NCBI GenBank assembly: GCA_964016885.1
Contig: OZ024741.1
Location: 2,790,001 to 2,854,000, forward strand
From: Eledone cirrhosa
Taxonomy: Eukaryota
Direction of reading: 5' to 3'
Length of the DNA stretch: 64,000 bases
Part shown: positions 3,423-30,700 of the stretch, piece by piece
Layout: each line of letters begins with the position of its first letter
How positions within the stretch are numbered: position 1 is the first letter of the stretch
Program-made: the position numbers and the translations under genes
The notes under the pieces: model-generated
The model's database searches: none
What the model was told of the DNA's origin: nothing
What the model saw: the letters and a program-made list of their open reading frames with translations, nothing else

Positions 3423-3630
3423 CGTTTCTGAATTTGTTTAGCAAGATTCTTTATCTGAAATCGTGTGTTGAAACCGATATTGTTATACTTTGGGAGGGTC
3501 ATGTTGCCAATAAGAAACACACGCACCAGTTGCTTTCACTTCAATTTATTATAATAAATTTATAAATTTACAAATTTATAAATTTATGGTTGGTTGGTTG
3601 GTTCCACAACCAGATAGTTGTTTATATATT

Positions 3631-3673
3631 GTCATAGTTCTTTCGTCACACACTCTGTGACCTCTTCAGTGAC
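3631..3673 (-). ncRNA. Minimal type I hammerhead ribozyme in pLTR
   Basis: Reverse complement: gtca-CTGAAGA-g-gtcacagagtgtgtgac-GAAA-gaac-TA-tgac. Confidence 0.75.
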
Positions 3674-4435
3674 TGGGGATTCTTTTCTTCTTTGTTTTTG
3701 TGCCTCTCCTTTGTTCTGTCCTACGCCATTTTGTTTCTGTGTGTGTGTTGTGTGCTCAGTCTGCGCATGCGCCACATCCGGGTGTCTGTGTGTGTTTATG
3801 TTCATTTATTTATTTATTTGTTTATTTACATGTTACTGGTTGGTTGTTTGTTCTATGTGTGTGTGTGTTTTCATTTTGTCCTTAATTGTAAGTTGTGATG
3901 TTGCTGTTCCATTCATATTTTCTATTTAATTTTGGTTGTAATTCTTTTATGTTTATTGCCTCTGTGATTTGTCTAAACATTGCGTCTTTTCTGTGTGTAG
4001 ATTCTATTTTTATTTCTAAGTTCTCTAATTTACCGTTGTGTTCTATTTTAGCATGTTGGTAGAGTACAGATGATTCTTTACTATCTTGAAGGTCTCGCCA
4101 GTGTTCATTTATCCGTTCCCCTACACTACGAGCTGTCTCACCTATGTACACTCTATTTTTGTCTCTACATTGTCCTTCAGTACATCTTATGCTATACACT
4201 ACATTTCTAGTTTTACAGTTAATATGGGGGCTTATTTTACAGGTTATACATTTCTTATCTATACATGAGGGTCTTTGAAAAGGGTATGTCTTGCTAATAA
4301 GTGTTTTTACGGAGGTACCTGGTCTTTCTACTATCTTAATATTGAGTTTATGTTTATCTAGGGCCCACAACAGAAACAAAATGGCGTAGGACAGAACAAA
4401 GAAGAGGCACAAAAACAAAGAAAAAAGAATCCCCA

Positions 4436-4478
4436 GTCACTGAAGAGGTCACAGAGTGTGTGACGAAAGAACTATGAC
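4436..4478 (+). ncRNA. Minimal type I hammerhead ribozyme in the inverted pLTR
   Basis: gtca-CTGAAGA-g-gtcacagagtgtgtgac-GAAA-gaac-TA-tgac. Stem I is gtca/tgac and stem II is gtcac/gtgac. Confidence 0.75.
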
Positions 4479-4629
4479 AATATATAAACAACTATCTGGT
4501 TGTGGAACCAACCAACACACCAGAAATTTATAAATTTATAAATTTATTATAATAAATTGAAGTGAAAGCAAATGGTGCGTGTGTTTCTTATAGGGCTCGA
4601 TAAGAATAAATATATATCAAATATATAAG

Positions 4630-6464: not shown

Positions 6465-7056
6465 TTGTGGTATGCTTAATGTTTAGTAGCCTATGGTATG
6501 TTAATACATGTTAGTACTTCTGGTATGTTGGTAGATGTTTAGTAGCTTATGGTATGTTAGTACATGTAGTACTTCTGGTATGTTGGTAGATGTTTAGTAG
6601 CCTATGGTATGTTACTACATGTTAGTACTTCTGGTATGTTGGTAGATGTTTAGTAGCCTATGGTATGTTGGTAGGTGTTTAGTAGCTATGGTATGTTGGT
6701 AGGTGTTTAGTACTTATGTACATGTTAGTACCTATGGTATTTTAGTAGGTGTTTAGTAGCTTATGGTATGTTGGTACATGTTAGTACCTATGGTGTGTTG
6801 GTACATGTTTAGTACTTATGGTATGTTGGTACATGTTTAATACTTATGGTATGTTGGTACATGTTTAGTACTTATGGTATGTTGGTACATGTTTAGTAGT
6901 CTATGGTACTTTGGTAGGTGTTTAGTAGTCTATGGTATGTTGGTACATGTTAGTAATTATGGTATGTTGGTACATGTTAGTACTAATGGTGTGTTGGTAG
7001 ATGTTAGTACTTATGGTACGTTGGTAGATGTTAGTACTTATGGTATGTTGGTACCT
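6465..7056. repeat. ~27-28-bp minisatellite (GTTTAGTACTTATGGTATGTTGGTACAT-like)
   Basis: About 20 tandem imperfect copies. Confidence 0.95.
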
Positions 7057-7119
7057 GTTGAGAGGAATCTGAAATAAAGATGACATACATACATAATTGC
7101 CCCCCACCACCCACCCGCT

Positions 7120-7335
7120 AGCAATAAAAACACACGCACCTGTTGGGTTTTCACTTTAATTTATAATAAATTTCCGCTTAGTTGGTTCGATAACTGGATG
7201 GTTGTTTATATATTGTCAAAGCTCTTTCGTCACACATTCTGTGACCTCCTCAGTGACTAGGTTTTTATTTTGTGTCTCTCTGTTGTTCTGTCCTACACCT
7301 TCTTGTTCTTGTCATAAAATAAAAACCTAGTCACA
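7120..7335 (-). mobile_element. Solo pseudo-LTR of the 3421-4590 PLE family, with HHR at 7215-7257
   Basis: Similar to 3510-3725. Reverse complement: gtca-CTGAGGA-g-gtcacagaatgtgtgac-GAAA-gagc-TT-tgac. Short inverted piece at 7316-7334. Confidence 0.8.
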
Positions 7336-7611
7336 ACTTTCATATGATCGTTACCAATGAAAGCGAAATTCATCACGTGGTTTATGGTCAACGAGAAGGG
7401 TAACAAATGGTGGACCATTGGCGGGTGACAGAGCTACGAGAAGAAGCAGTCTATTTCAGACTAATTTTTCACTCAACCGGAAGAGGGTACAGAACAATAT
7501 ATATATATATATATGTAGATAAATCTACCAAGAGTTTACGGTAGTGTCCAATCCGTATGAAGAACTCAATGTAATCCGGATATCATGGAAAGAAGAGATG
7601 CAATGAAAAAT

Positions 7612-7760
7612 CACTTTCTGAAGACGGCATATATATGTGTTGGTATGTATATTTAATTTTGATAGTTTGTATAATTTTGTATAATTTTGTACATAGATCT
7701 GTTGAATATGCATGCCAATTCTAACACATATATATCCTAGAAACGATCGTTAAATAATGA
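7612..7760 (+). ncRNA. Type I hammerhead motif with a long stem II
   Basis: ttt-CTGAAGA-cggc atatatatgtgttgg...ctaacacatatatat ccta-GAAA-cgatcg-TT-aaa. Stem III is the palindrome AACGATCGTT. Confidence 0.65.
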
Positions 7761-7815
7761 ACTTTTTTTGTTTAATATAAGGAACTGTTTCATTGTTTTA
7801 TTCATTATTTTTTTA

Positions 7816-7873
<58 letters not shown>

Positions 7874-8029
7874 CATTCGTGTATACATCGCTACTTCAGA
7901 GCACCAATCCTAATACCTAATTTTTGATTGATGGACCGGCAATCGTTCTGTATAATCCCCTCCTGATTATTACTGGAATTCTATAAGAATCCAGCTTCTA
8001 TAATTTTCGGCTAAAGCAGGGGTGTACGT

Positions 8030-8071
8030 GGCTGTGATGAACGCCAGCTAGCGTGAAACAGACTGTCAGCT
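8030..8071 (+). ncRNA. Type I hammerhead motif, C3G core variant
   Basis: ggct-GTGATGA-acgc cagcta gcgt-GAAA-cagactg-TC-agct, with a GUC cleavage triplet. Confidence 0.65.
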
Positions 8072-8190
8072 TCTCTCCCTTCTTTCGCCGAAAAGAAGTA
8101 AGTGACATAGTCACTACTTTAAAATTGATAGCTTAGGGTCTTCTAAATGTTTTTAATTAAGCATACGGTATATTGCCAAATATACATACA

Positions 8191-8272
<82 letters not shown>

Positions 8273-8345
8273 GGAGCTTCCAACAGAAATGGTCGCATTC
8301 TTTAAGGGTATGTCAATATTTATTTATAAAACTGATCTATATTAT

Positions 8346-8408
8346 ATTTTATCTGATGAAAGCACACCATAATTTAACTTGGTGTCCTTGAAATATGTAT
8401 AATGAAAT
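8346..8408 (+). ncRNA. Type I hammerhead motif
   Basis: ttttat-CTGATGA-aagcacacca taatttaact tggtgtcctt-GAAA-tatgta-TA-atgaaa. Confidence 0.7.
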
Positions 8409-8450
8409 AAATATGGTTTTATAAATATAGTTTCCATTTGTTAATATATC

Positions 8451-8508
<58 letters not shown>

Positions 8509-8589
8509 CAGAAGGAAGAGAAATTAATTAACACTAAAAATTGTATTTTTTTTTAATATAATGTCTAAGTTTTCATCATTATTTAAACT

Positions 8590-8712
8590 AGCAGATTGAG
8601 TTCAAATCCCGCCGAGGTTAACTTTTCCTTTCATCCTTACGGGGTCGATAAAATAAAGTACCAGTAATACACTGGGATAATTGCTGGTCTTGTGCCAAAA
8701 GTAGAAACAATT
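8590..8712 (+). mobile_element. tRNA-derived SINE, 5'-truncated
   Basis: B-box GAGTTCAAATCCC followed by gccgaggttaacttttcctttcatccttacggggtcgataaaataaagtaccag, a core shared with about 12 copies in the window. Confidence 0.85.
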
Positions 8713-8902
8713 ATTTAAACTATCAGAAAAACCACTCTGCAGGTGGTTTTCTGCTAGCATGTGTAGTGTGTATATTGATATTATACGCAGGCATATATAC
8801 ATGTAGATATGTTACATCAAATAAAATCGTAATTGACAATATATAATACATAGAAATTGAACGAAGACTACGTTACACTGTCTTATGTAATCAGTAACGT
8901 AA

Positions 8903-9804
8903 TCTATATATATAAAACTGTGGTTGTCTGTCTGTCTATCGATTTTTGGCACACATCTCCTCTTAGAATCTCTCACGGAATTGCACCGAAATTGCTATAC
9001 TTGTACATTGAGCCCTAGCGAAGACATCGGAAAAAAAATAATTTCAAATTGACCCGCCCTATCTGACGAAATCGAATATAATGTATCGATTTTTGAGCGT
9101 AAGTTATCAGTTATTTCCCTTTGTTCTGTTTACATTGAGCGTCTTACGTAAAAAATTACGCTGGCTTTACGAACAGTTGTCGAGCCAGCAAAATATTGAC
9201 CTGCAAAATTCATCAGTTCGAACACTAAGCTTCCGTTTTGCTTCATTTCCATTTAAAAGCATTTTAAAACAATATTTTTACTTGAAAACAAGTCTATTTA
9301 AAGACTACGTAAAACAAGCAAATATTTCGTCGTTAGGCGTGCAGACAGACAGTCGTGCAGAGAGGTGATATAGGCGTGCAGACAGACAGTCGTGCAGAGA
9401 GGTGATATAGGCGTGCAGACAGACAGTCGTGCAGAGAGGTGATATAGGCGTGCAGACAGACAGTCGTGCAGAGAGGTGATATAGGCGTGCAGACAGACAT
9501 AACTGATAATTTGGTTACGCTAATGTTTTTCTCTGCGTTGCAGTGTTTACATTTTCGATCTTTGTTAATAAATAACCAGTGCAGTTTTTATCCCCAGCAT
9601 CCTCTTTTGTTATAACATTCGGGTTATCGTTATGTTTTCTTAACTTCATAAGGCATATTGTTGGTTGAGGGAATATTAATCAAAAACACCACATGCAAGT
9701 CTGCACAGTAGACACTACAGTTTTTAAGCCAAAAAAGAAACTTAACATTGTAACTTTAACACAGCTACTGAGCGACCCCGAGCAACGCCGGGCTTTACTG
9801 CTAG
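8903..9804 (+). mobile_element. Non-autonomous Helitron
   Basis: 5' TC (TCTATATATATAAAA) after A. 3' GC-rich hairpin cccgagcaacgccggg followed by CTAG and then T. (GTCT)n near the 5' end. No TSD. Confidence 0.8.
9334..9499. repeat. 37-bp tandem repeat (~4.5 copies) inside the Helitron
   Basis: ggcgtgcagacagacagtcgtgcagagaggtgatata repeated perfectly. Confidence 0.95.
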
Positions 9805-22722: not shown

Positions 22723-26202
<3,480 letters not shown>

Positions 26203-26206
<4 letters not shown>

Positions 26207-26412
26207 AGATAAATCTACCAAAATGTACGGTAGTGTCCAATCCGTATGAAGAACTCAATGTAATCCGAATATCATGAAAAGAGAAGATGTATTCAAACAT
26301 TTTTTTTCCGATGAAAAATACAGGAAAACAGAGTCAAGATAAATTAATAAAAATAATGAATAAAAACAAACAGTTCCTTACATTAAAAAATTCATCATTT
26401 TACGATCGTATA
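26203..26412. repeat. Rearranged copy of the 7514-7820 module
   Basis: gtagataaatctacca...tatcatg is in direct orientation. 26350-26410 is the reverse complement of ~7743-7812. Confidence 0.75.
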
Positions 26413-27210
26413 ATCATAAACTGAGAAGAACTTTTAAATATTATAAACCTAATTAATATACACTTTAGAAATTATTATAATAACACTTTTTTTAAATTAG
26501 TTAACCTATAATTAATATTCTACTACTAATGAACTGCATAATTTTACTTCCCGTTTACAGCTATCTTTTCCTAAAATTTATACCAATAAGTATACATATA
26601 AACTATTTTAATTTCAGGTTATGATTCTATGTTCCTTATAATCTATATAAATTTGTTATTTCTCACTAATAAATTTACCCCCCCCCCCCAATAATTATTA
26701 TTATTATTTTTTTTTTTATTCTCCCTTCGTTTTTAACAGCACTCTTCAATTACATCTAACTCTTATTTATCATATCTATATGAATTAATATAAATTTATC
26801 AATATAAATATACCTATCAATTTAATTAATTTATTTTCTTTTTATAGATGTAAATTCCCTATATTTTGAATAAGATTGATATTTTTCACTAACACATTTA
26901 TCGTAAAATTTTATTCTCCTTAGATATTTACATTAGCATTATTCTTTTATAACATCAATTCGTCGTGTACCTTTTACCGACTTGACCTATTTTCATCCCT
27001 AAAATAATATTTTCATTCATCATACTCTTTCCATTCAAACTGAAATCTGCCTTCCTCTACCCCTAAATTAAAGTTCTATTACTTCTCTCTTATGCCTTCA
27101 CACAAATATAGAGTGTACTAGGGATTGGCCAAGGGAGAAAAATATAGAAAGGAGAGAAATAGTAAAATAGAAGAGAATAAGGACTGTTGTCCTTTGTAGA
27201 CAAAGAAGAT

Positions 27211-27637
27211 ATGTATATAAAAGGTAAACAGAAATAACAACACAATCGGTACAGTATATGGAAGGAATATATTAGGTTAACACTTGATATAGCAGGAAGA
27301 GGGTCTTAACGTTTCGGACGCTAGTCCTTTATCAGAAGAAAGAATGAGAAATAAAATAGATTGAGGGGACGGGCGGGATGGAATTGGAAAAATGTCTTTA
27401 GATAAAAATAACAGGTCCATTCCTGTTGACATCTCTTGGAAAACTGTTGGTGCTGGCGTTTTGTGTATGATTTGTTTTTTAGAAAAGTGGATGATGGAAC
27501 GCGTCTACCTGGAATGGAAAAAAGTGTTTTGGAAAAAGAGCTATACTTGAGCACGTGAGTAAGCATGTATGTGTGTATGTGTGTGTGTGTGTGTGTGTGT
27601 CTGTCTGTGTGGCTGTGTGTGTGTGTGTCTGTCTGTC

Positions 27638-27730
<93 letters not shown>

Positions 27731-30700
27731 ATCGGTCCGTACAAAGCTAAGAAGAAATGTGTGTGTATGTGTGAGTAAAAGAGTGTGTGTGCATGTAAGT
27801 ACGAAGCTATGAGCAAAAGTATGTTAATATAAGGGTGTGTATCGGCATGTATTAGTTGGAAGAGAAGCTGCTAATGATCAAGAGAGGGCGATAGGAATTT
27901 AGGGGTATGATAATGGACGAGGTATTAGAGAAATTGGGGAGGTGAGTTGAGTCCAAGAGGGGAATAGGACCCAAGGTGGTGAATCAGACTTTGTTCAGTC
28001 CTGGTGCGCGAAGCCTGTGATCCATGATGTAAAAGGACACCCAGGACTGAAACATGTAGGGAAGAATGACCAGGAGAACAGAAATGACGGGCAACAGGAG
28101 TATCCAAACCGAGTATGATGTCCCTCAAATGTTCGGCAAAACGGTCCGCCATACGGCGTCCCGTTTGTCCGATATATAAATACCCGCAAAGGGAACACCG
28201 GAGGGCATAGACAATGTGGGTGGATGTGCAGGTGAACGAATGGCGGATATGAAAGATCCGTTAATCCTGTAAGAGTGGTGAGGGTGGAAATAATGGGACA
28301 AGTGTTGCAGAGGGAACGGGAACAAGGATGAGAGCCGGGTAGAGTTGTGGGAGAGGACGAAAAGGAACTGTGAACCAGGAGGTCGCGGAGGTTGCGGGCG
28401 CGCTTAAAAGCAGTAATGGGTGGGTTTTGAAAAAAAGCGAGAAGTGACGGGGTCAGAAGAGAGGATACGGAAAGAACGGAGGATATGTCGCCGGAGTGGT
28501 AGGGTGATGGGGTGGTAGGTGAGAGGGAAAGGAACACGGGTGTTGGGAGGGCGGGGTGAGGTGAGAGGGCTGTGGTGCAGTCTGTTTCATGGGCGCGGGT
28601 GAGAGCAGCTTGGATGAGGGTGGGGGGATATCCAAGCTGGATGAAGCAGGAATCCATGCGAAGGGAATGGGTTTCGAAATCGTCGTCCTGGCTACAGAGT
28701 CGACGAATATGGAGGAATTGGGAATAAGGTATGGAGTGTTTGGTGTGGGTTGGATGGGAGGAGGTGAAGTCGAGGTAAGATTGGGAGTCTGTTGGTTTAA
28801 TGAAGATGGAAGTAGAGAGGGTGTGGTGAGAGTGATTAATAGATAGAGAGATATCTAGAAAAGCGACAGAAGAATCGGAGACTGAGGTGGTCAAATTGAG
28901 AACAGGATGGAAAGATTGGAAAAAAGAAAGAAAACAGTCGAGCTTTTCTCGTGATAGAGATGTGGCGCCGATACAGTCGTCGATATAACGACCGTATAGT
29001 TCAGGAGTCGGTCCAGCGTACTAGGAGAAGATCTGGGCTTCGACGCACCCGAAAAAGAAAATCCATTGAGGGTGAGAACAAGCTCAGCCAGAGGGAGAAG
29101 AGTGGTAATGCTGGGGTAAGGGGTAGGGCGTAAATCTATAAAAATGTTGGAGAGCGCGGAGGCCGTCATCATGAGGGATGACAGTGTAGAGAGAGGTGAT
29201 GTCCAGGGTAAAGAGAAGGCGGGAGGGACCAGGAGGGAAGGAGAAAGAGTTGAAGAGTCTAAGAGCATGATTTGTATCGTGGATGTGGGAGGGGAGATTG
29301 CCGACCAACAGAGCGAGGATGGTGTCTAAATATTCAGAAATTATCTCGGTGGGCAGTTGCACGCAGAAACGATAGGACGGCCAAGATTATTTTGTTTGTG
29401 TATTTTGGGGAGGAAGTAGATGGTGGGTGTGCGAGGGGTGCGTACAATAAGGTTGGTGGTTGTAGGGGTAGGAGAGAGGAGGAGATTAGCTCGTAGATGA
29501 TGGAGGACACGAGTTGTTGGTAGCCAGGAGTGGGGTCGAGGGATAAAGGGCGGTAAAAAAGGGTATTGCGAAGCTGGCGGAGAGCCTCAGCCCTATAGAG
29601 GTCAGCACTCCAAACCACCACAGCGCCACCTTTGTCAGCAGGTTTGATGACAATGTCATCACGACGCCGAAGGTTGCGAAGAACGGAGAGTTCAGTTCAC
29701 GTGATGTTAGTGCGACGAGAATGCTGGTGGAAACGGAACCGGTTCACAATACGCCGGCAAGTATCGACAAAGAAGCCGAGGGTGCTGAACTGGCCAGAGC
29801 TCGGCATCCAATGTGATTGCCAGTGACTGAGACGAGTGAAGTCGTCCGTCTGTGTCGATGATGGCGTGTCGTGGAAAAAAGCTTTGAGCTTTAATCAACG
29901 GAAGAACCCTTCAATATCGGCACGTGTGTGGAACTCGTCGCAGGTAGATGTGGTTGGTATAAAACGCAAACCCCGGGCGAGGAGGGAGCGCTCAGCTTCG
30001 GAGATTGGTAGGTTCTGGGGTATGGTGACTACAGTGGAGAGACGTGAGGGAGTGAAAGAGGTGGAGGAGGAAGGGTTAAGGTGGTTGGGAAAAGCGTGTG
30101 CAGAATCAGTGGTGAAGAGAGGAAAGGGGTGGTAGGTGACAGGATAGAGGGGTTAGGGTTGGAGGTGATATGAGTATGGGTGGTGACGGCAGGCGGGGAG
30201 CGGAGAGAGTCGAGTTTGTGTTTTTTTACGGAAGTGAGGAAATTGAAAAGGAGGCGATTGAGGTAAAGGATGAATTGGATAAGGGATTGGGCGAGGAAAG
30301 GGTGGCAAGTGGAGGAGAGATGGAAGTAGGCCTTGGGGAGATCTCGGTCGAGAGAACGGATTTAAGAGAGTGTAGAACGGATAGTCGCCCGCATGAGTTG
30401 GCGAGAGGAGCGGATAAGGATGGGCTCAGTGGTGGGAGCAGAGTAAGAGCTGGGATGAAACTTGAGGCGGAAACCGCGGGGAATGAAGTGGTGGTGGAGA
30501 CAGGGACTTAAAAATGTGATGTGATTGTTGTATCGTGTTTTGGTGAAGATGAGGTTGGAGAGATGCAAGGAGGATTGGATGCATATAGGAGGGGGTGGGT
30601 GGAGTAAGTGCTTGAGAGTAGACTGGAGCTGGCGGAGAAAAGATTTGAGATTGGGCATATTGAAGGTACTAGCGTGGGAATGAAAAATAGACGGGTGAGA

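Follow-up and report, generated by a model that had tools for sequence, protein, structure and literature searches.

Do three short hammerhead-bearing sequences, lying one after another in a single TA repeat of the Eledone cirrhosa genome, form a mobile system of their own, or are they unrelated insertions that came to share a target? The question was raised by a preliminary description of the window, by which we mean the whole 64,000-nucleotide stretch analysed here (contig OZ024741.1, positions 2,790,001 to 2,854,000) within a 3.0-Gb genome. That description read the three modules as retrozyme-like or solo pseudo-LTR (pLTR) mini-elements mobilised by Penelope-like elements (PLEs), and as a candidate for an undescribed system. 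We find that the stretch brings together mobile elements of kinds already known and is not a new system, and that the three modules are unrelated repeat copies in one TA tract. With good confidence, modules 1 and 3 can be regarded as short pLTR ends of PLEs whose reverse transcriptase (RT)/endonuclease parents are present in the genome, and module 2 as an ORF-less tandem hammerhead (HHR) unit, likely a product of copying in trans. As a cluster the locus is ordinary; the families that compose it are useful for the study of PLE integration and for the question of what role the hammerhead plays.

Three modules and their hammerheads

Inspection of the window places the modules between four TA tracts within one TA repeat (Table 1). 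Pairwise comparison of modules 1, 2 and 3 gave no match longer than 15 nt, and the ORF list of the window contains no frame of 120 aa or more overlapping them. Together with the tract positions, this bears out the earlier picture of three consecutive, non-coding and mutually dissimilar modules bounded by TA. Positions written -n or +n are counted relative to the first base of each family's HHR core.

Table 1. Coordinates of the TA tracts, modules, module parts and hammerhead boxes in the window.
Feature	Position	Strand	Description
(TA)n tract 1	7498-7514	.	sequence
Module 1	7515-7821	inverted arm (-), direct arm (+)	27% GC
Module 1, inverted arm	7515-7618	-	last 104 nt of the family 1 optional tail; identity with the L239 tail 98.2% (L239 is a full-length copy)
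Module 1, direct arm	7615-7821	+	family 1 pLTR, -3 to first fixed 3′ end (+207); 97.6% identical to both L239 pLTRs
Module 1, HHR core	7618-7624	+	GAAA at 7740-7743; GUU cut triplet
(TA)n tract 2	7822-7869	.	sequence
Module 2	7870-8193	+	39% GC; nearest other copy 93% identical; one unit of the 316-bp ORF-less head-to-tail family plus 9-nt terminal redundancy
Module 2, HHR core	8034-8040	+	GAAA at 8055-8058
(TA)n tract 3	8194-8269	.	last 3 bases common to the 5′ end of module 3
Module 3	8270-8451	+	27% GC; nearest-copy identity 99-100%; family 3 pLTR, -86 (in the family's preferred start range) to first fixed 3′ end
Module 3, HHR core	8353-8359	+	GAAA at 8390-8393
(TA)n tract 4	8452-8505	.	sequence

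Each module had been credited with its own hammerhead, and the predicted cuts after 7751, 8067 and 8401 (modules 1, 2 and 3) had been correctly read from the sequence; the motifs differ in their state. Core positions are numbered by general convention, consistent with PMC4209133. Only module 3, with an intact type I motif and a helix I of 8 bp, is predicted to be able to form an intact ribozyme at the locus. Module 2 carries a G at core position 3 (C3G, at 8034), a change reported to abolish cleavage by a PLE HHR in an in vitro test (PMC11167929); among 72 distinct copies of its family, 63 have the normal core and two a U3-A8 core. In module 1 the two core boxes persist on either side of a helix II that is about 115 nt long. 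This helix has a C.A mismatch at its base, and only 3 of the 10 helix I pairs of the parent are kept because the 5′ end of this HHR is the inversion junction described below.

The HHR descriptors used on the window did not pick up the module 1 motif. Rfam reported no HHR at the gathering threshold over the whole window, nor at E≤10 over 7000-9000, where its output was limited to TA-driven microRNA noise. A strict HHR descriptor gave four matches in positions 1-31700 of the window and none in 10 shuffles, and reversed-pattern controls had no match genome-wide; HHR matches thus exceed the chance expectation.

Modules 1 and 3 and their coding parents

A DNA search with module 3 returned nothing, the module itself included (common words are skipped), and a pattern search was used instead, which gave 4,005 exact matches genome-wide and none for the control. 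When 30 of the 40 scored matches to a far-upstream piece of family 3 were examined, the module was found downstream in 25, and all 10 long copies fetched carry RT/endonuclease coding sequence upstream of the module on the same strand. Eight family 3 copies with long frames were retrieved, among them L310, which is organised as pLTR and tail, a 743-aa ORF and a pLTR. Where the full-length ORF is unbroken, the pLTRs reach only 85-87% identity with module 3; among the copies examined, the long ones that are 97-98% identical to it have broken or partial ORFs. Module 3 is identified, by homology, as the pLTR end of an ORF-bearing PLE family, here family 3. An RT remnant upstream of module 3 in locus L088 belongs to another PLE type and was dropped as a parent.

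Module 1 is not a simple unit, since it consists of an inverted tail joined to a direct pLTR arm across a 4-nt overlap. The direct arm is 100% identical to other short copies, and a 27-nt pattern from the module has 6,716 exact matches genome-wide (control, 0). Three further loci, of which one is 91% identical, have the same junction, and this suggests recurrent microhomology switching. The 26 candidates of the module 1 DNA search do not measure copy number, as copies containing rare junction words passed the filter preferentially; a clustering of breakpoints among them was discarded for this bias and retested on pattern-picked loci. Walking upstream from locus L042 led to the parent, the copies L238/L239, which comprise a pLTR with HHR and tail, an 830-aa stop-to-stop frame, a low-complexity 3′ region of about 3.5 kb, and a second pLTR with tail followed by (TA)n, with a period of 6,421 bp (6.4 kb). 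The 830-aa protein has no Pfam match at E≤0.1, and it weakly matches a Pfam-positive PLE ORF of the same genome (BLASTP, E 5e-9). Module 1 is thereby assigned as a short pLTR end of this second ORF-bearing family, family 1. Elsewhere in the window, a diverged family 1 pLTR end with tail (26154-26450, minus strand) adjoins (TA)n and is directly followed by a 5′-truncated copy of another PLE (24312-26136), forming a second chain across a TA tract.

To which PLEs do these parents belong? Their proteins are 45-47% identical to each other. In both frames YRDD is followed by YIG/YVG, that is, an RT plus a GIY-YIG-type endonuclease at the C-terminus in a single ORF; both carry DKT instead of DKG, RWR at the RWK motif position, a CxCX5C linker, and CxxC and CxH near the C-terminus. 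In L239 and L310 the HHR lies in the pLTR flanking the ORF, the tail is optional and 5′ copies are inverted. The published marks of the Hydra clade are DKT, RWK, CxCX5C, CxxC/CxH, HHRs and (TA)n insertion (PMC8557442), and by these motifs, rather than by placement in an RT tree, the parents of modules 1 and 3 appear Hydra-like. A protein search gave mostly unnamed relatives and no clade label. The single RT and endonuclease ORF, pLTR hammerhead, partial tandems, inverted 5′ copies, optional tail and (TA)n target all agree with the description of Hydra-clade PLEs in PMC8557442. The families differ from that description in their units (6.4 kb for one and about 4.0-4.3 kb for the other, where the description has "generally <3 kb"), their tails (about 137 and 87 nt, against 30-40 bp), RWR in place of RWK and thousands of young copies, as well as in the clustered 5′ ends of short copies, of which we found no description in the parts of that source consulted. 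As in the minimal metazoan PLE hammerheads of PMC4209133, helix III is short and palindromic and the ribozyme is predicted to work as a dimer, motifs are mostly single and dispersed with opposite-strand pairs 100-700 bp apart, and a U3-A8 variant occurs; family 1 is unlike them in having a helix II of about 115 nt without the usual G-C pair at its base.

Two other PLE groups were noted in the genome. A young family (L128-L145, e.g. L130 4928-7255, minus strand) has many unbroken 775-aa ORFs (RVT_1 and GIY-YIG) and, at its 3′ end, an HHR-like motif that reads as a U3-A8 core variant; it was rejected as parent of any module. A third Hydra-like ORF (L263 6296-8351, plus strand) is about 37% identical to that of family 1 and has a different upstream pLTR.

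Module 2 belongs to an ORF-less 316-bp family

The DNA search with module 2 gave 3,242 first-look candidates, of which 40 were scored. A strict intact-HHR pattern matched 244 places genome-wide, so that the family numbers at least that many, and 70 of these loci were examined. Homology is confined to a closed 316-bp unit, with a longest run of about two units; the head-to-tail join is crossed in 41 of the 70 loci, and 25 have an adjacent inverted arm. These 70 loci contain no ORF-bearing parent and no family-specific upstream sequence in common: three pairs of loci share upstream sequence, at unmatched unit positions and derived from other repeats, and PLE protein matches, present in six, lie at least 500 nt from the HHR and outside the module. 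The proposed linkage to PLE ORFs thus holds for modules 1 and 3, with their 830-aa and 743-aa parents, and was not seen for module 2 in the 70 loci; the multiplicity that had been expected is found for all three.

How the 316-bp family moves can be approached through its ends. Most of its 3′ ends lie at unit position 9 or at about 46-48, each then followed by (TA)n, and the two are 39 nt apart, the classical length of a PLE tail (PMC8557442). The 5′ ends are spread from 0 to -344; four lie beyond the upstream cut position at about -280, and therefore the template was likely a circle or an uncleaved multimer, which is to say that module 2 was likely copied from circular or multimeric RNA. The 5′ ends are also slightly enriched at -62 to -73 (10/70; unit positions 88-99) in a context resembling the family 1 start, with a significance too low to claim. 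In a tandem subfamily 72-76% identical to module 2, C3-G8 is replaced by U3-A8, a known variant of PLE HHRs (PMC4209133), and this covariation reads as a sign of selection on the ribozyme.

Module 2 fits a non-LTR retrozyme, the part of the earlier reading as retrozyme-like elements that stands. It shares with the animal non-LTR retrozymes of PMC7229834 and bioRxiv 10.64898/2026.07.22.740005 an ORF-less unit within 150-450 bp, a GC content below 50%, a type I HHR, head-to-tail copies, a self-paired predicted circle (here strongly so, z -5.8 against mononucleotide shuffles) and the presence of PLEs in the same genome. Two consecutive complete HHRs serve as the mark of an "active" retrozyme (bioRxiv 10.64898/2026.07.22.740005); same-strand motifs 303 and 316 bp apart occur at a few places of the family and are absent from the window copy. 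The copies of module 2 are dispersed and reach at most about two units, in contrast to the long arrays of animal retrozymes (PMC7229834), and they have a PLE-type tail, 5′ inversions and TA targeting, the words "tail", "inverted" and "microsatellite" being absent from the main text of PMC7229834. The window copy also differs from animal non-LTR retrozymes by its C3G.

What mobilises animal retrozymes? A role of PLEs has been argued from co-occurrence and pLTR similarity (PMC7229834; bioRxiv 10.64898/2026.07.22.740005), and the insertion anatomy of module 2 points to PLEs as well: the module was likely moved in trans by PLE proteins. ORF-less type I HHR tandem repeats with likely PLE dependence are already published in the same two sources, as is (TA)n insertion for Hydra PLEs (PMC8557442). 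In consequence the idea of an undescribed system is not upheld. Modules 1 and 3 are pieces of ORF-bearing PLEs with Hydra motifs, and this is to a large extent what the preliminary description had named as the finding that would speak against it, namely that the modules are ends of known autonomous PLEs.

Insertion into TA tracts and formation of chains

Among pattern-picked loci, a (TA)≥5 tract within 400 nt after the anchor was present at 30/30 in family 1, 29/30 in family 3 and 26/30 in family 2, 85 of 90 altogether, in agreement with the TA flanks expected earlier. Across the tract, 27 of these 85 copies adjoin another repeat, a repeat being called when the far-side sequence adjoins TA elsewhere in a library of about 345 loci, with a few positives of low complexity. 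From this frequency, about one copy in ten would be predicted to belong to a chain of three. Clustering across TA tracts is therefore ordinary in this genome. The density of foreign HHRs is not raised near the modules (0.07-0.23 per kb within 500 bp versus 0.17-0.30 per kb at 500-1500 bp), and we claim no special enrichment of HHR neighbours.

Short copies start at preferred 5′ positions

The first 30 matches to the family 1 pattern represent 20-22 insertions, of which 9 start at -5 to -9, mostly at -7. Of those ending between -150 and +19, 9/13 do so (crude corrected p 4e-10, a value computed without the long copies and without starts at +96 and +111). Among the nine, seven consist of two arms placed head to head, one ending at +207 and the second at +344, and some family 1 pairs carry re-copied terminal bases at the join. 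Over 100 listed family 1 places, 12 of the 19 head-to-head pairs shorter than 1.5 kb are spaced 260-310 bp, where 279 is expected for two -7 arms, and a pattern taken downstream of the cut gave the same -7 peak (30 loci, largely overlapping the first set). Family 3 starts at -80 to -88 in 11 of 30 loci, at -89 to -150 in one and at -33 to -70 in 11. Sequence extends far upstream at about 8/30 family 3 loci, in 7/30 family 1 arms and at 0/70 module 2 loci. All four ORF-bearing family 1 copies examined continue upstream beyond -7, which means that RNA must also start elsewhere than at the fixed position. Short copies of families 1 and 3 do not have random 5′ ends, and because these cluster, the solo-pLTR reading proposed earlier suits modules 1 and 3 better than random truncation does.

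Two possible causes of the fixed 5′ ends were rejected. Hammerhead cleavage would place them at the cut, +135, where none of 30 family 1 arms selected by the downstream pattern starts (the nearest are at +124, +125 and +146), and a splice acceptor is contradicted by the lack of an AG before -7 or -88. Likely, the ends reflect an RT that was primed inside the pLTR and ran off the RNA where its 5′ end is fixed. No account of short PLE copies with fixed 5′ ends was found in the literature covered, mostly that outside subscription papers and repeat databases. Contigs assembled from unlabelled sequencing runs, possibly of the same source, have loose TA ends at the fixed 3′ ends, and RNA ends cannot be read from them.

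A model for the short copies and its alternatives

Each family has two fixed 3′ ends adjoining (TA)n, 5′ arms may be inverted, and in families 1 and 3 the 5′ ends cluster; the following model would account for this anatomy. The PLE endonuclease would nick (TA)n, and RT would prime on an uncleaved template at either of two internal RNA sites, giving tail-less or tailed ends. Priming in the pLTR near the RNA 5′ end would lead to run-off and leave an HHR module of 180-350 bp, in many cases paired head to head with a second one. As TA would remain on both sides of each insertion, the target would be remade and chains could accumulate. Module 2 would use the same PLE chemistry in trans, probably from a circular or multimeric RNA. 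The steps resemble those reported in vitro for Poseidon, a PLE of the lizard Anolis, in which AT-rich DNA is cut, both strands are extended, two internal RT start sites bound the tail and uncleaved RNA is the main template (PMC11167929); Poseidon belongs to another clade and its HHR overlaps the ORF start, compared with about 200-490 nt upstream of the ATG here. In Drosophila, the Penelope promoter is located in the pLTR (PMC2377424).

Taken further, the short HHR modules may be a regular class of by-product of Hydra-type PLEs, in which two-site internal priming on an uncleaved RNA begun in the pLTR, and run-off at its fixed 5′ end closely upstream of the hammerhead, generate mini-copies of fixed length and head-to-head twins with one tailed and one tail-less arm; beside them stands the 316-bp family, with its PLE tail, inversions and TA targeting. 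For this broader proposal we see an even chance. If true, short HHR modules would be the genomic footprint of twin target-primed reverse transcription, and the 316-bp family would provide direct anatomical evidence that animal retrozymes move by PLE proteins. The internal-priming model could also be put to a genomic test with these Hydra-type families, which are young, present in high copy number and equipped with unbroken ORFs, and whose copies have two fixed 3′ ends and 5′ ends that cluster.

Could the 5′ ends instead arise where RT stalls, or where the cDNA folds back, at HHR helix I or its extension? The -7 end of family 1 does lie inside the 5′ strand of a 10-bp helix I, an extended inverted repeat surrounds the module 3 HHR, and contig depth in the unlabelled runs, which is not copy number, declines from about -10 to -140 with no sharp step at -7. 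However, fold-back at helix I predicts an inverted arm without HHR, and both arms usually reach -7 (L267, L283), with short re-copied terminal bases between them at these two loci; the family 3 peak lies upstream of the inverted repeat of that family, and the starts of families 1 and 3 share a similar C-A-(C/T)-T-A-T context. We regard stalling or fold-back as rather unlikely.

More doubtful still is that all three modules are randomly 5′-truncated ends of autonomous PLEs, the parent of module 2 being unsampled. Truncation at the 5′ end is the rule for PLEs (PMC8557442), ORF-bearing parents were found for two of the three modules, and a rare autonomous parent of module 2 could escape a sample of 70 out of at least 244 motif-matching places. 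Against this, starts are concentrated at -5 to -9 in family 1 and, in family 3, at -80 to -88, where the upstream edge is sharp, and the sequence upstream of module 2 is always the end of its own unit. That the modules are one undescribed composite multi-ribozyme cassette, as the position of all three HHRs on the plus strand within 740 bp might suggest, is scarcely credible, since the families are found apart from one another, each next to other sequences at hundreds to thousands of places, nearest-copy identities are unequal (100%, 93% and 99-100%), two of the three ribozymes are damaged at the locus and nearly a third of copies (27/85) adjoin some other repeat across TA. The preferred reading thus remains that of separate insertions, two of PLE pLTR ends and one of a retrozyme-like unit probably copied in trans.

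Other repeats of the window

The first 31.7 kb of the window is dense in PLE debris, with RT or GIY-YIG motifs in at least three remnants. About 190 bp to the left of the cluster lies a fourth, degraded HHR-bearing pLTR remnant (7122-7312, minus strand), 73-77% like the pLTRs of a PLE remnant at 3500-4600, and the cluster is flanked by tandem arrays of 27-29-bp and 37-bp units at 6479-7059 and 9334-9499. Three further intact type I HHRs, at 2801 (-), 20655 (-) and 21199 (+), belong to another TA-flanked family, the last two forming a head-to-head pair. A further broken PLE with RT and GIY-YIG motifs occupies 27995-30014 (minus strand), with a degraded HHR near 27270, and the second half of the window (31782-64000) is a 42-bp satellite of about 770 copies with the heptamer CTGAAGA in every unit.
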